DNA of 53,478 bases from Minisyncoccota bacterium (GTDB taxonomy: Bacteria > Patescibacteriota > Minisyncoccia > Phycocordibacterales > UBA9973), in NCBI GenBank assembly GCA_041659785.1, contig JBAZXO010000002.1:1-53478 (forward strand), read 5' to 3'. Shown here in pieces: positions 21,685 to 33,256 of this stretch. Below the pieces are notes generated by a model. That model was given only the letters and a program-made list of their open reading frames with translations. It did no database searches and had not been told where the DNA came from. Made by a program: the position numbers and the translations under genes. Position 1 is the stretch's first letter, and every line of letters starts with the position of its first letter.

Positions 21685-23382
21685 ATGGCTTTATTTGATG
21701 AAGAAAAACAAAATAGACAATTGGATGATTTGCACAAACAAGAAGAAGAGCAGTTAGTGGCAACGCTAGCAGAATCAAAATATGGCATACCTTATATTGA
21801 TCTTTATCGATTAGGGATAGACAACGAGGCGCTTCGTGCAATATCTGAAAAAGATTCCAGGGAACTAAATGTAGCTCCTTTTAAGCTTTTTGGAAAAAAT
21901 ATTTTTATTGCATTACGTTCTCCTTCAGACGAACTTATAAAAAGACTAAAAGACGATATGGAAAGAAAAAATCTAATTCCAACTTTTTATATGGCATCTT
22001 CAGGAAGCATAAATAAGGTCTGGGAAAGATATAAAGAAATTTCAATGGCAGAAAGCTCTACTATCGGGGGTTTGGATATTTCTGGAGAAGTTCTCAGGGA
22101 AACAGCAGCAAAAATACAAAAAATGAAAGATATTGAAATAATGATCACTGATGCCTTGAAAGAAAATAAAATCCATAAAATTTCTCGTATGCTCGAAATA
22201 ATATTAGCTGGTGCTATCGCCATCAAAGCGTCTGATATTCATATTGAACCCGAGGAAGACAGAGGAAGGCTCAGGCTTAGACTAGATGGAGTTCTCATTG
22301 ATGTATTATTCTTCGGCTTAGATGTCTATCGTTTACTTAATTCACGAATAAAACTTCTCTCTGGAATGAAATTGACATCAAAGATAGCTCAAGACGGACG
22401 TTTTAGTATTACAGAAGGCAAAGAAGAAATAAGTATTCGTTCTTCTCTCATCCCTGGAACTTATGGTGAATCGATAGTCATGAGAATATTGGATCCAAAA
22501 TCAATTCAAGTACCACTTGAAGAGCTCGGAATCGAACCTTTCCTTTTTTCAGTCATTCAAAAAGAAATATCAAAACCAAATGGATTAATTTTAGTTACTG
22601 GTCCTACAGGCTCCGGAAAAACCACGACCCTTTATGCGTTCTTAAAAAGAATTTACTCTCCCGAAATAAAAATAATAACAATTGAAGATCCGGTAGAATA
22701 TCATTTGGTAGGTATTACTCAAACACAAACTGACATGAAAAAGGGTTACACCTTTGCAGAAGGTTTGCGCTCAGCCTTACGCCAAGACCCAGATGTGGTG
22801 ATGGTCGGAGAAATTCGTGACAATGAAACAGCAGAAATAGCTGTGCAATCAGCGCTCACAGGACACATCGTCTTTTCAACTCTGCACACGAACAACGCAG
22901 CAGGTGTCATCCCCCGCTTAATCGACCTTGGTGTTAATCCCAAAATTTTAGTTTCAGCATTATCTCTCTCTATTGCACAACGTTTGGTGCGTAAACTTTG
23001 CCAGTTCTGTAAAAAGGAAAAAGCTCCAAGCAAAGAAGAGGAAGAAACTATAAAATTAGTTCTAGCAAGTATAAAAGATGAGGGGAAAAGTCTTTCAAAC
23101 TATAATATAAAAGAAGACGCGCCTATAAAACTTTTTACTACTGTAGGCTGTGATAAATGCAACATGACTGGATTTAAAGGCAGAATAGGAATATTCGAAG
23201 CAATTAAAACAGATGATGCTATTGAAAAAATAATGCCAGAAAATCCAAGCGAGCATGAAATTAAAAAAGTAGCGCGGGCACAAGGAATACTTTCAATGCG
23301 CCAAGATGGTCTTGTAAAAATGTTAAATGGAATTACCTCTTTTGAAGAAGTACAGAGTGTCGTTGATCTAAATGAGGAATAG
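21685..23382 (+). CDS. pilB: GspE/PilB family type IV pilus assembly ATPase
   Basis: ASDIHIEP, QDGRF, GPTGSGKTT, TIEDPVEY, LRQDPDVVMVGEIRD, CQFC/CDKC. Confidence 0.88.
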   Translation: MALFDEEKQNRQLDDLHKQEEEQLVATLAESKYGIPYIDLYRLGIDNEALRAISEKDSRELNVAPFKLFGKNIFIALRSPSDELIKRLKDDMERKNLIPTFYMASSGSINKVWERYKEISMAESSTIGGLDISGEVLRETAAKIQKMKDIEIMITDALKENKIHKISRMLEIILAGAIAIKASDIHIEPEEDRGRLRLRLDGVLIDVLFFGLDVYRLLNSRIKLLSGMKLTSKIAQDGRFSITEGKEEISIRSSLIPGTYGESIVMRILDPKSIQVPLEELGIEPFLFSVIQKEISKPNGLILVTGPTGSGKTTTLYAFLKRIYSPEIKIITIEDPVEYHLVGITQTQTDMKKGYTFAEGLRSALRQDPDVVMVGEIRDNETAEIAVQSALTGHIVFSTLHTNNAAGVIPRLIDLGVNPKILVSALSLSIAQRLVRKLCQFCKKEKAPSKEEEETIKLVLASIKDEGKSLSNYNIKEDAPIKLFTTVGCDKCNMTGFKGRIGIFEAIKTDDAIEKIMPENPSEHEIKKVARAQGILSMRQDGLVKMLNGITSFEEVQSVVDLNEE

Positions 23383-23383
23383 A

Positions 23384-23535
23384 AAAAGCATTAATCTCTA
23401 AACAATCCTTTCGGAGCTGGGCCCCAAAAGTAACAAAGTATTATAGGATGGTTCCAGTGGACTAATAAAAGTAACCAAAACGTCCTATGCAAATTCGTAT
23501 AACCTGTGGCTGATTGCTTAGAGATTAATGCCTTC
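23384..23535. ncRNA. Candidate structured ncRNA (long closing stem, central bubble, apical stem)
   Basis: 20-bp stem 23388-23407/23512-23531; inner stem 23443-23450/23481-23488; TCC-GAAA-GGA hairpin on - strand; strand not settled. Confidence 0.45.
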
Positions 23536-23612
23536 TTGTCCCGCCTTTGGCGGTGGCTTTAATAATCTCTTAAAACTATTATACTATATAAGGCGAACAA
23601 CAAATGCTATAA

Positions 23613-23644
23613 TGTTGATAGCTATGTTGATACCCTGTTGATAA
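23613..23644. promoter_or_regulatory. Three DnaA-box-like repeats upstream of ruvB
   Basis: TGTTGATA at 23613, 23625 and 23636; overlaps TG-C-TATAAT at 23605-23613. Confidence 0.45.
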
Positions 23645-23672
23645 ATGTACTATTTTTATAATATAGCATATA

Positions 23673-24719
23673 ATGAAACCAATGTCAAGTAAAAAAGCTA
23701 AAGAAATAGACAATACCGATATTAAAAAAACAGAGAGCTCTGATGACTCTTTCTTGGATCAAACACTCCGCCCTACCCACTGGGATGAATATATTGGCCA
23801 AAAGCACATAAAAGATAATGTAAAAATTTTATTAAAGGCCGCAGAAGGACGCGGACATATTCCTGAACACATACTTTTCTATGGACCACCAGGATTAGGT
23901 AAAACAACTCTCGCGCACTTGATTGCAAAAGAAACTGGCCGACAAATGAAAATTACTTCTGGGCCGGCAATAGAAAAAGTCGGAGACCTCGCATCTATTC
24001 TTACAAACTTAGCTGCGGGTGACATTCTTTTTATAGATGAAATTCATAGACTTAATAAAATGGTTGAGGAAATACTTTATCCTGCGATGGAGTCTGGCGT
24101 TTTAGATATTATTATCGGCAAAGGTCCGTCCGCACGAACGATTCAGCTCGACTTACCACCTTTTACTTTAATTGCCGCCACCACTCGCGTAGCAATGGTA
24201 TCTTCCCCATTACGTTCTCGTTTCTCGGGTGGAGTTTTTCGATTAGAATTTTATTCAAACGAAGAAATTGCAAAAATTATAGAAAGATCTAGTAAACTTT
24301 TAAAAATAAAATTAGAAGAAGAAGCATTGAAAGAGATTGCGGAGCGAAGTCGCTTCACCCCTCGTACAGCAAACTACTTTTTAAAACGTTGTCGAGATTT
24401 TGCTCAAGTACACAAAAAAGATTTAGATAAAAAAACAGTCAAAGAAGCCTTAAACATGCTTGCAATTGATAACATTGGCCTAAACTCTTCCGACAGAAAA
24501 TTCTTAGAAATATTAATTGAAAAATTCAAAGGTGGCCCCGTAGGATTAAAAACTATTGGTGCTGCAATGTCCGAAGAAGAAGCCACTGTAGAAGAAGTAA
24601 TAGAGCCATATTTAATACAGCTTGGTCTCCTTGAACGTACGGCTCGCGGAAGAGTAGCCACGACTAAAGCATATGAGCATCTTAAAATTAGTTATAAAGT
24701 AGAAAGTGAAAAGTTGTAA
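23673..24719 (+). CDS. ruvB: Holliday junction branch-migration helicase RuvB
   Basis: LRP, GPPGLGKTTLA, TSGP, FIDEIHR, LRSRF, EPYLIQ.G...RTARGR. Confidence 0.97.
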   Translation: MKPMSSKKAKEIDNTDIKKTESSDDSFLDQTLRPTHWDEYIGQKHIKDNVKILLKAAEGRGHIPEHILFYGPPGLGKTTLAHLIAKETGRQMKITSGPAIEKVGDLASILTNLAAGDILFIDEIHRLNKMVEEILYPAMESGVLDIIIGKGPSARTIQLDLPPFTLIAATTRVAMVSSPLRSRFSGGVFRLEFYSNEEIAKIIERSSKLLKIKLEEEALKEIAERSRFTPRTANYFLKRCRDFAQVHKKDLDKKTVKEALNMLAIDNIGLNSSDRKFLEILIEKFKGGPVGLKTIGAAMSEEEATVEEVIEPYLIQLGLLERTARGRVATTKAYEHLKISYKVESEKL

Positions 24720-31915: not shown

Positions 31916-33256
31916 CTATTTAAACATAATTCTTATTTGTTCTAATTCTTGAATTAACTGCGAATCATTTTTTAAATCAGCTTTAATCTTTACACATGAG
32001 TGCATCACTGTGGTGTGGTCCTTCCCTCCTAGTTTTTGTCCTATTAAAGGATAAGACACACTAAAGTCCTCCCGGAGTAGATACATTATTATTTGTCGGG
32101 CTTTTACTATTTCTTTTTTTCTAGTTTTTTCATAAACAGATGCTTCTTCTAGTTTATAATAATCTGCCACAATTTTTACAACATCTTTAATCGCCATATT
32201 CTTTTTAGGCTTCATGTTGTTTTTTAGAAGGTTTTTTACTTCCAAAAGCGTAGGAGCTTTATTTTTCAAGCGATATTGGCAAACAATGAGGTTTAAGCTT
32301 CCCTCAAGCTCCCTGATATTTCCTTGCATTGCGCCAGCAACATACTCAACTAAGTCGTCCTCTAAAACAATATTAAGCTCTCGAAGCTTAACCTTTATAA
32401 TCGCGAGCCTGGACTCATATTCTGGTTCAGAGATATCGACTATCATTCCTGCAGCAAAGCGTGATTTAAGGCGGTCTGCGAGCTCTGGGATGTAGTTAGG
32501 GTGCTTATCAGAAGAAAAAATAATTTGCTTATTGTTTTCATAAAAAGTATTAAACGTATGGAAAAGTTCTTCTTGAATTTTTTCCATTTTTCCTATGAAC
32601 TGTATGTCGTCTATGATTAGAAGATCATATTTTCTATATTTTTCTTTAAAAGAGTTTGCTTTATTGCTTTGAAGTGAATTAATAAAGTCAGTTGCAAACT
32701 TTTCTAGGGTCATATAATGCACCTTTTTATCAGGATATTTGTCTTTTATTGAATTTCCTACTGCTTGGATCAAGTGAGTCTTCCCTAAACCAGTGCCTCC
32801 ATAAATAAAAAATGGATTGTATTTAGTTCCAGGAGACTCGATGATTGCTTGAGATGCCGCATAAGCGAGTTCGTTGAAGGCTCCGACGATAAAAGAGTTG
32901 AATTGGTACCTTGGGTTGAGGTTGTCTCCTGGATTTATATACAAATCCCTTAAAGGCAGCTCTTTTTCTACGGTTTCGTTTATTGTGATAATTTCTTGTT
33001 TAGGATTTTCTATTTTTGTAATGGTATATTCCACAGCCCGCATGTTTTCATAGGCTTCTGCTATGGTTTTAGTTATGAGTTTGTGGTATTTGTTCATGAG
33101 CCAGTCACGTACAAATTCGTTTGGGACGCCAATATAAATAATACCAGTTTCCTCTTTAACAATAGAGGTATTTTTGAACCAGGTGCTGAAGTTTGCTTTT
33201 GACATTCCTGCTTCAATCTTCAATAAACAATTTTTCCACAACTGTTTCGTATTCAT
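31916..33256 (-). CDS. dnaA: Chromosomal replication initiator DnaA
   Basis: LNPRYQFNSF, YNPFFIYGGTGLGKTHL, LIIDDIQF, RLKSRF, GGKDHTTVMH. Confidence 0.98.
   Translation of the reverse strand: MNTKQLWKNCLLKIEAGMSKANFSTWFKNTSIVKEETGIIYIGVPNEFVRDWLMNKYHKLITKTIAEAYENMRAVEYTITKIENPKQEIITINETVEKELPLRDLYINPGDNLNPRYQFNSFIVGAFNELAYAASQAIIESPGTKYNPFFIYGGTGLGKTHLIQAVGNSIKDKYPDKKVHYMTLEKFATDFINSLQSNKANSFKEKYRKYDLLIIDDIQFIGKMEKIQEELFHTFNTFYENNKQIIFSSDKHPNYIPELADRLKSRFAAGMIVDISEPEYESRLAIIKVKLRELNIVLEDDLVEYVAGAMQGNIRELEGSLNLIVCQYRLKNKAPTLLEVKNLLKNNMKPKKNMAIKDVVKIVADYYKLEEASVYEKTRKKEIVKARQIIMYLLREDFSVSYPLIGQKLGGKDHTTVMHSCVKIKADLKNDSQLIQELEQIRIMFK

Follow-up and report, generated by a model that had tools for sequence, protein, structure and literature searches.

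The 53,478-nt stretch of DNA analysed here (the window) derives from a Minisyncoccota bacterium whose genome assembly (GCA_041659785.1) comprises 687 kb in seven contigs with a G+C content of 36%, and it corresponds to positions 1-53478 of the second of these contigs (JBAZXO010000002.1; C2 below). Between pilB, which encodes the type IV pilus assembly ATPase, and ruvB it carries a gene for a structured RNA of a new sequence family. The gene lies on the minus strand and extends, measured from P1 to P1, the two strands of its closing stem, from 23537 to 23382. Its product folds into a closed four-way junction built from this stem, a hairpin (P2), a long arm (P3-P5) and a second hairpin (P6), and it is conserved across a very large Paceibacteria order, with outliers in other orders and classes. 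The novelty is that of the sequence family and does not extend to the kind of function. With regard to function, we lean toward a stable, trans-acting, protein-binding RNA, acting as a housekeeping-type ribonucleoprotein or as a decoy, and away from an antisense or cis-regulatory element. The conserved part, which is presumably the mature RNA, measures about 155-175 nt and is closed by P1.

A structured noncoding RNA between pilB and ruvB had been proposed in a first-pass annotation made from the sequence alone, and this proposal is borne out by the presence of the pairing arms, by the stability of the fold and by abundant covariation. The 20-nt arms of the proposed closing stem are found at 23388-23407 (+) and 23512-23531 (-), with 0.04 matches expected in shuffled sequence. 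The stem is longer than the 20 bp, extendable by four, that had been described, as it reaches 25-26 pairs when read on the minus strand (23537-23512 with 23407-23382); its outer A-U and G-U pairs are A-C mismatches on the plus strand. The strand, which had been left undecided, is settled as minus by several lines of evidence. The minus-strand fold has a free energy of -64.8 kcal/mol (z = -7.1; 0 of 200 shuffles as good), the plus-strand fold one of -47.2 kcal/mol (z = -3.2), and a covariance model scores the element at 168 bits on the minus strand versus 44 bits on the plus strand. Furthermore, many G-U pairs exist only when the element is read as a minus-strand RNA, and the promoter described below has the same orientation. 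As had been stated, the element holds no open reading frame; none of at least 40 amino acids lies inside it in the open reading frame list of the window.

Comparative analysis supports the fold at the level of individual helices. RNAalifold applied to the genus alignment (36 copies, consisting of the window and 35 relatives) gave 52 pairs, 14 of them with compensatory changes. Two broader alignments were fitted to the covariance model and are consequently biased toward the structure: among 30 copies from different families, 94.4% of the cells were paired, 43 of the 52 pairs were altered on both sides and the covariation score was 0.534, while the corresponding values for 94 copies were 92.4%, 42 of 52 and 0.492. 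When the 3' partners were slid by 1-3 columns as a control, 40-50% of the cells remained paired in either set and the score fell to 0.09-0.13 for the 30 copies and to 0.12 or less for the 94; none of the 500 shuffles per set reached the observed values. An independent MAFFT alignment agrees for P1, P4, P5 and the base of P6. The same four arms also appear when single sequences from 30 families are folded to minimum energy. Compensatory changes maintain every one of the seven helices in the consensus fold, and the junction is left with only about 2-4 unpaired nucleotides per side.

Several details of the earlier structural proposal were altered by these results. Its inner stem is real and corresponds to P4 (AUAGGA/UCCUAU). 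The asymmetric open bubble, in contrast, is closed by P2 (23511-23501) and P3 (23498-23494/23437-23433), both of which show compensatory changes: over the 94 copies, all four modelled pairs of P2 (94% of cells paired) and all five pairs of P3 (85% of cells paired) are altered on both sides. Similarly, the GAAA that had been read as the loop of a TCC-GAAA-GGA hairpin belongs to the sequence GAAAG, which forms the 3' strand of P6, a heavily covarying 10-bp helix (CUUUUGGGGC-CCA-GCUCCGAAAG) in which 8 of 9 pairs are altered on both sides. P1 is 25-28 bp long across the family and its outer pairs covary, down to the last pair.

Conservation of sequence follows a different pattern from conservation of shape. 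Positions with the same letter in at least 90% of the 94 copies fall inside helices. They comprise the core of P1 (AA.CUCUAA.CAA with UUG.UUAGAG.UU, of which CUC is invariant; as pairing strings, CUCUAAGCAA/UUGYUUAGAG), P4 and its bulged C (AGGAC with UCCU), and P5 including a tandem U-G/G-U (U.GGU with C.GG), so that the constant strings of the P4-P5 arm read AGGAC..UGGU/CUGG..UCCU. The P2 and P6 hairpins keep their shape and not their sequence.

The RNA is single-copy and widespread. One copy is present in the genome under study and, by blastn, in each of 36 of 36 other genomes of the genus, at 74-94% identity limited to 23378-23537. A covariance model built from the 36 aligned genus-level copies (R1) detected the RNA, full-length and once per genome, in 112 of the 151 genomes examined from the order, representing 98 of 131 genera and more than 100 GTDB families. 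An exact-pattern scan with one genome per GTDB species identified at least 120 species that carry the RNA, and titles among the matches listed include Nomura-, Taylor-, Zambryski- and Vogelbacteria, Parcubacteria, Paceibacterota and Minisyncoccia. A broader model (R2), applied to 401 evenly sampled genomes of the phylum, recovered the RNA in 7 of 8 genomes of the order (3 of them of the same genus), in 2 from other orders of its class and in 2 from other classes; few candidates per genome were scored in this search, so its absences are soft. The first-pass annotation had named a lack of covariation and the presence of many dispersed copies as findings that would count against an RNA gene; covariation is abundant and each genome has a single copy.

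A reduced relative of the RNA occurs in a genome of another class (G210; locus L080:1501-1639, minus strand, 41 bits). It is a plain long hairpin that keeps the AAGGAC..CUGGUU..ACUGG..UAUCCU core, a closing stem and the U-run, and has neither P2 and P6 nor a four-way junction. It adjoins a VanW-like gene and an IS110-family transposase and not pilB or ruvB. Because this copy retains P4-P5 without P2 and P6, comparison of the two forms suggests that the P4-P5 arm may be the functional core of the RNA.

Expression of the RNA as an independent gene is indicated by a conserved promoter. In 89 of 92 loci the RNA strand carries, no more than 180 nt upstream, a motif consisting of TTGACA with at most one mismatch, a spacer of 13-16 nt and TGnTAnnnT, and in none of the 92 does the opposite strand carry it; in the window the motif spans 23688-23660 (-). 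The TATAAT that the first-pass annotation had placed near 23580 does exist, at 23583-23578 (-), and is conserved within the genus; the promoter conserved across the order, however, lies farther upstream. In one relative, a metatranscriptome contig runs through this second TATAAT, which fits a start at the upstream promoter.

The -35 box of this promoter is physically built into the start codon of ruvB. Perfect TTGACA is present in 85 of the 89 loci, and the box together with the base after it (TTGACAT) reads on the other strand as ATGTCAA, which in the window represents the likely ruvB ATG at 23682 and a Ser codon. The box overlaps an opposite-strand ATG in 74 of the 89 loci, and in 67 of these 74 the ATG opens a reading frame of at least 300 amino acids (or one running off the locus) that starts MS.., mostly MSS..; the gene at this position is ruvB in the loci compared by tblastn. 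The overlap is sufficient on its own to explain the lasting synteny of the RNA with ruvB, and we infer that this deep synteny is a structural lock and by itself no sign of a function in recombination. The ruvB reading frame listed for the window begins at an ATG at 23673, and the conserved start of the relatives is the second ATG, at 23682 (MSSK...), which is the one overlapping the -35 box.

Synteny extends to the other flank. Of 30 loci compared after the order search (29 other genomes), 29 have the RNA next to pilB, as do 7 of 9 additional loci that the phylum-wide search contributed from other orders and another class, even though PilB identity among the syntenic relatives is only 43-60%. 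The RNA gene is usually placed tail-to-tail with pilB and divergent from ruvB. Its 3' end is marked by a U-run, which directly follows the GC of P1 in all 36 aligned genus-level copies; in other families a U-run follows P1, or a separate hairpin with a U-run lies 20-60 nt downstream. At the 5' end, relatives have between 9 and 150 nt separating P1 from the end of the -10 box. Promoter and terminator together delimit about 23652-23378 (-) as a predicted independent transcription unit in the window (Table 1). In many genomes only 0-15 nt separate the stop codon of pilB from the 3' end of the RNA, so transcription of pilB must run antisense into the RNA gene.

Table 1. Parts of the RNA gene and flanking genes, with their positions in the window.
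Feature	Position	Strand	Basis or remark
-35 box TTGACA	23683..23688	-	promoter scan; full promoter has 11/12 matches with TG
Extended -10 box TGCTATATT	23660..23668	-	promoter scan; transcription start predicted near 23652
Variable 5' leader	23538..23652	-	promoter-P1 distances, upstream alignments
Second -10-like box TAGTATAAT in leader	23586-23578	-	contains TATAAT 23583-23578
P1, 5' strand AAGAAGGCAUUAAUCUCUAAGCAAUC	23512..23537	-	closing stem; covariation
P2 hairpin AGCC-ACA-GGUU, 5' side of junction	23501..23511	-	covariation, 94 copies
P3-P4-P5 long arm with variable tip	23433..23498	-	folding and covariation
P3 ACGAA/UUUGU	23498-23494 with 23437-23433	-	all 5 pairs altered on both sides
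P4 AUAGGA/UCCUAU, followed by bulged C	within 23433..23498	-	
P5 GUUUUGGU/ACUGGAAC with tandem U-G/G-U	within 23433..23498	-	
P6, 10-bp hairpin CUUUUGGGGC-CCA-GCUCCGAAAG, 3' side of junction	23408..23430	-	covariation
P1, 3' strand GAUUGUUUAGAGAUUAAUGCUUUUU	23382..23407	-	U-run 23387-23383 is also the U-tract of the intrinsic terminator
pilB, type IV pilus assembly ATPase, convergent	21685..23382	+	Pfam T2SSE 4.4e-115
pilB stop codon	23380-23382	+	0-5 nt from the U-run of the RNA
ruvB, divergent	23673..24719	+	Pfam RuvB_N 5.2e-70; start region holds the RNA promoter

Public sequencing data contain the element as well. The window itself is represented in DNA metagenomes only. Wastewater and soil metatranscriptomes yielded read-length contigs of relatives over the element, at a depth of 3-12, which is similar to that of the flanks. 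A run guessed to be RNA contained a 178-nt contig of depth 16.7 that covers the element alone, with both of its ends a few nucleotides or less from those of the element; this coincidence is suggestive only, as the coding flanks of this relative may be too divergent to align on the window.

The favoured reading, a trans-acting RNA bound by protein, can be laid out as a sequence of steps. Transcription from the promoter on the ruvB start would give a longer precursor with a variable leader, the leader would probably be removed by processing, and the mature ends would probably be made by cutting at the base of P1. Such cutting is probable because the leader and the position of the terminator vary, while P1 covaries to its last pair. 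Long near-perfect duplexes are natural substrates of RNase III, and this enzyme would be the obvious candidate nuclease for the near-perfect 26-bp P1; its gene is present at C1:294301-295002 on another contig (signature ERLEFLGD). One or more proteins would then recognise the helices in a sequence-specific manner. The invariant letters inside helices, along with the conservation of P2 and P6 in shape only, argue for recognition by protein and not for target pairing or a purely antisense action. A search for a trans base-pairing target gave no obvious one, as the genome contains the conserved P1 core only here. RNA polymerase, as for 6S RNA, would be the leading single candidate for the partner, although the closed junction does not favour it.

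Several observations weigh against the reading of a trans-acting, protein-bound RNA. The constant placement beside pilB and ruvB would also fit cis-antisense action or transcription interference. The contigs from RNA runs are assembler contigs of relatives, which attest to the presence of the element and say nothing of the ends, strand or abundance of a transcript; at least one of them extends into the promoter-proximal leader, as could result from DNA carry-over or from longer transcripts. Finally, R1 found no match in 39 of the 151 genomes of the order, whether through divergence, assembly gaps or true absence.

The relationship to 6S RNA requires particular attention, as the first-pass annotation had described the architecture as 6S-like and suggested a divergent 6S RNA or an undescribed RNA of the candidate phyla radiation. 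The 6S RNA is described as a rod-shaped molecule of about 200 nt whose central bubble is largely unstructured and whose two arms are broken by loops (PMC8876501, PMC8414754), and in Firmicutes a 3'-bubble hairpin in the free RNA lies opposite an open 5' bulge that templates product RNAs (PMC8414754, PMC8876501). None of the 4227 models of Rfam 15 matched the window copy or six distant copies at E<=10. The Infernal search with RF00013 and RF01685 that had been proposed as a check likewise gave nothing at E<=10 in 23000-24000 or on the six distant copies, RF00013 detected no 6S RNA in the genome under study, and the whole window yielded only two tRNAs at Rfam gathering thresholds. The second suggestion, that of an undescribed RNA too elaborate for a simple terminator, is supported; the 6S-like architecture with its open bubble is not. 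RF00013 does work in this phylum, with 39 matches in the 401 genomes, of which 8 exceed the gathering score and all are in other classes. Our literature search found no paper linking the candidate phyla radiation or Patescibacteria with 6S RNA or describing this motif.

One competing interpretation is that the RNA is nevertheless the 6S RNA of this lineage, as a divergent homologue or a functional replacement that would mimic a promoter for the sigma-70 holoenzyme; P1 would then represent the downstream duplex, P3-P5 the upstream duplex, P6 the 3'-bubble hairpin and the P2 region the template strand. We regard this as possible and on balance unlikely. There are resemblances to Firmicutes 6S-1 RNA and to the 6S RNAs of Patescibacteria: both the new RNA and these are single-copy, stand-alone genes with a strong sigma-70, housekeeping-type promoter, 150-180 nt long, in whose rod-like layout a closing stem, a 5' element, an apical arm and a 3' hairpin follow in like order. 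The six best canonical 6S RNAs of Patescibacteria (loci L207-L212) measure about 155 nt; they leave 15-20 nt of the 5' strand open and have a hairpin on the 3' side. Furthermore, no canonical 6S RNA was found in about 25 sampled genomes of the class or in the 11 genomes carrying the new RNA, so that no genome had both. However, about one overlap would be expected by chance, and the difference (0/25 vs 39/376) is not statistically significant (p ~0.06).

The differences from 6S RNA concern the features that define that family. Where 6S RNA has an open 5' bubble, the new RNA has a conserved 5' hairpin and a closed junction, since P2 (4-8 bp) and P3 are kept by compensatory changes. Its P1 is an uninterrupted, near-perfect 26-bp duplex with an invariant core, whereas the arms of 6S RNA are interrupted by loops and bulges (PMC8876501). 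The 6S models remain silent on it at a permissive threshold in a phylum in which RF00013 is effective. It is also fixed between pilB and ruvB, in contrast to the phylum's canonical 6S RNAs, as neither gene is adjacent to the six best of these loci. It was concluded that the new RNA is not a member of the 6S family, its resemblance in length and order of parts notwithstanding. A possible precedent for a lineage-specific RNA in the 6S niche is Ms1 of Actinobacteria, an RNA polymerase-binding RNA of clades without 6S RNA, which is larger and binds core polymerase (PMC9130861); the analogy is one of description only.

Alternatively, the gene could be a cis-acting module of the pilB-ruvB region, in which a strong antisense promoter occludes or collides with ruvB expression, the RNA pairs perfectly with pilB read-through or pilB-ruvB transcripts for cutting by RNase III, and the fold serves stability only. 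Such a module is in line with the location of the -35 box, which in 74 of 89 loci falls within the start codon of ruvB, with the antisense entry implied by a pilB stop codon only 0-15 nt from the RNA 3' end in many genomes, with a GC hairpin resembling a terminator that some relatives have on the pilB strand just past the RNA gene, and with the presence of an RNase III gene. Antisense action requires neither a particular sequence nor a fold, yet specific letters of P1, P4 and P5 do not vary in more than 100 families, and compensatory changes maintain all seven helices. In addition, the G-U pairs show selection on the RNA strand's own fold, and the P4-P5 core persists in the reduced copy of another class, where pilB and ruvB are not adjacent. 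Taken as the explanation of the gene, the cis module therefore seems rather improbable.

Under the idea that the RNA is the core of a Paceibacteria-specific housekeeping ribonucleoprotein, the boldest form would make it a mimic of the Holliday junction, a decoy or guide that titrates or directs RuvA, RuvB or RuvC and whose promoter is interlocked with ruvB. A true four-way junction, constant placement beside ruvB with yebC downstream, and a ruvA encoded elsewhere in the genome lend this idea some appeal, and we consider it very improbable. The synteny is sufficiently explained by the promoter/start-codon overlap, the conserved letters run along the helices and are not at the junction, and a four-way junction is missing from the reduced copy of the other class; moreover, we know of no evidence that RuvA or RuvC binds RNA junctions. 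The idea that there is no RNA gene at all, the 20-bp inverted termini belonging to a miniature inverted-repeat transposable element (MITE) or other DNA inverted repeat or to a pilB terminator, or the element being a divergent signal recognition particle (SRP) RNA or transfer-messenger RNA (tmRNA), neither of which is detectable elsewhere in the genome, is extremely improbable given a single copy at a constant site, strand-specific G-U pairs and promoter, a U-run opposite to pilB, no Ffh M domain or SRP-type GTPase in the genome, and a negative ARAGORN search with no tRNA-like domain.

Comparison with known systems places the favoured ribonucleoprotein or decoy reading in context. The RNase III stems and intervening sequences of rRNA precursors resemble the new RNA in that a long near-perfect duplex is formed from flanking sequences, with variable leader and trailer outside it. 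In the new RNA, however, the core of the stem is invariant and encloses about 105 nt, and its cleavage would be by analogy. The raiA motif, HEARO, OLE and ROOL are orphan structured RNAs defined by covariation and lineage-wide conservation, as is the new RNA. Their Rfam models do not match it, and it is limited to Paceibacteria and to one genomic site.

Bacteria of the candidate phyla radiation make up a large share of bacterial diversity, and to our knowledge almost nothing is known of their RNA biology. The new RNA has support of a quality that is usual only for universal RNAs, including at least 120 species, more than 40 covarying pairs, a near-consensus promoter and one locus. The genome that carries it, of about 0.7 Mb, has apparently dispensed with SRP and has no detectable tmRNA or 6S RNA; retention of the RNA despite such streamlining suggests that it is likely to be important. 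If it were truly the RNA polymerase regulator of its lineage, 6S function could reside in a closed junction, and if not, it would define a new ribonucleoprotein. The overlap of its promoter with the ruvB start is a clean example of two genes locked in deep-time synteny.

Other identities were considered for the element. Neither the small nor the large SRP RNA model (RF00169/RF01854) matched in the genome, and Ffh and FtsY, the proteins with which an SRP RNA would partner, were not found: PF02978 (Ffh M domain) gave no match, PF00448 (SRP-type GTPase) none over the cut-off, and motif scans were negative. The SRP pathway thus seems wholly missing in a genome rated 100% complete, though it could lie in assembly gaps. 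A tmRNA was sought with ARAGORN in the window and in all seven contigs with negative outcome, and the element has no tRNA-like domain and no Rfam match. RNase P RNA is present elsewhere, near C1:244650 (motif GGGGAGGAAAGUCCGAAC), and is therefore not this element; similarly, an RNA standing in for RuvA is contradicted by ruvA, which is encoded at C2:7650. A MITE does not agree with one copy per genome at a constant syntenic site, nor an intrinsic terminator of pilB with a U-run, G-U pairs and promoter that are all on the strand opposite pilB. Resemblances to the Cas9 repeat/anti-repeat, the sarcin-ricin loop, the 23S 3' domain, the hairpin ribozyme, Y RNA and retron RNA were judged to be chance, because no associated protein gene was present among the neighbouring open reading frames checked and there was no Rfam match. 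Two candidates from SRP motif scans (C1:9830-9880 and C2:153465-153485) proved to be copies of the GC palindrome CCCGGACACCAGGTGTCCGGG.

The leader of the RNA, which is also the promoter region of ruvB, has features of its own. Three direct repeats resembling DnaA boxes, CTATCAACA, GTATCAACA and TTATCAACA (-), lie at 23613-23644 with a spacing of 11-12 bp, and other members of the genus, as well as a few other families, have variants such as TATCCACA, TATACACA and TATGCACA at this position. A replication origin at this site was rejected, as dnaA (32435-32920, minus strand) has its own box cluster near 33232, about 10 kb away, and the boxes beside the RNA are limited to a subclade. A GC-rich hairpin, CCGCC-TTTG-GCGG, is situated at 23540-23556 between P1 and the promoter, with a similar hairpin in about six relatives. 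Read on the pilB strand, this hairpin resembles a terminator just past the RNA gene; in one relative (L017) it takes the form CCCCGC-TAT-GCGGTGG followed by T7.

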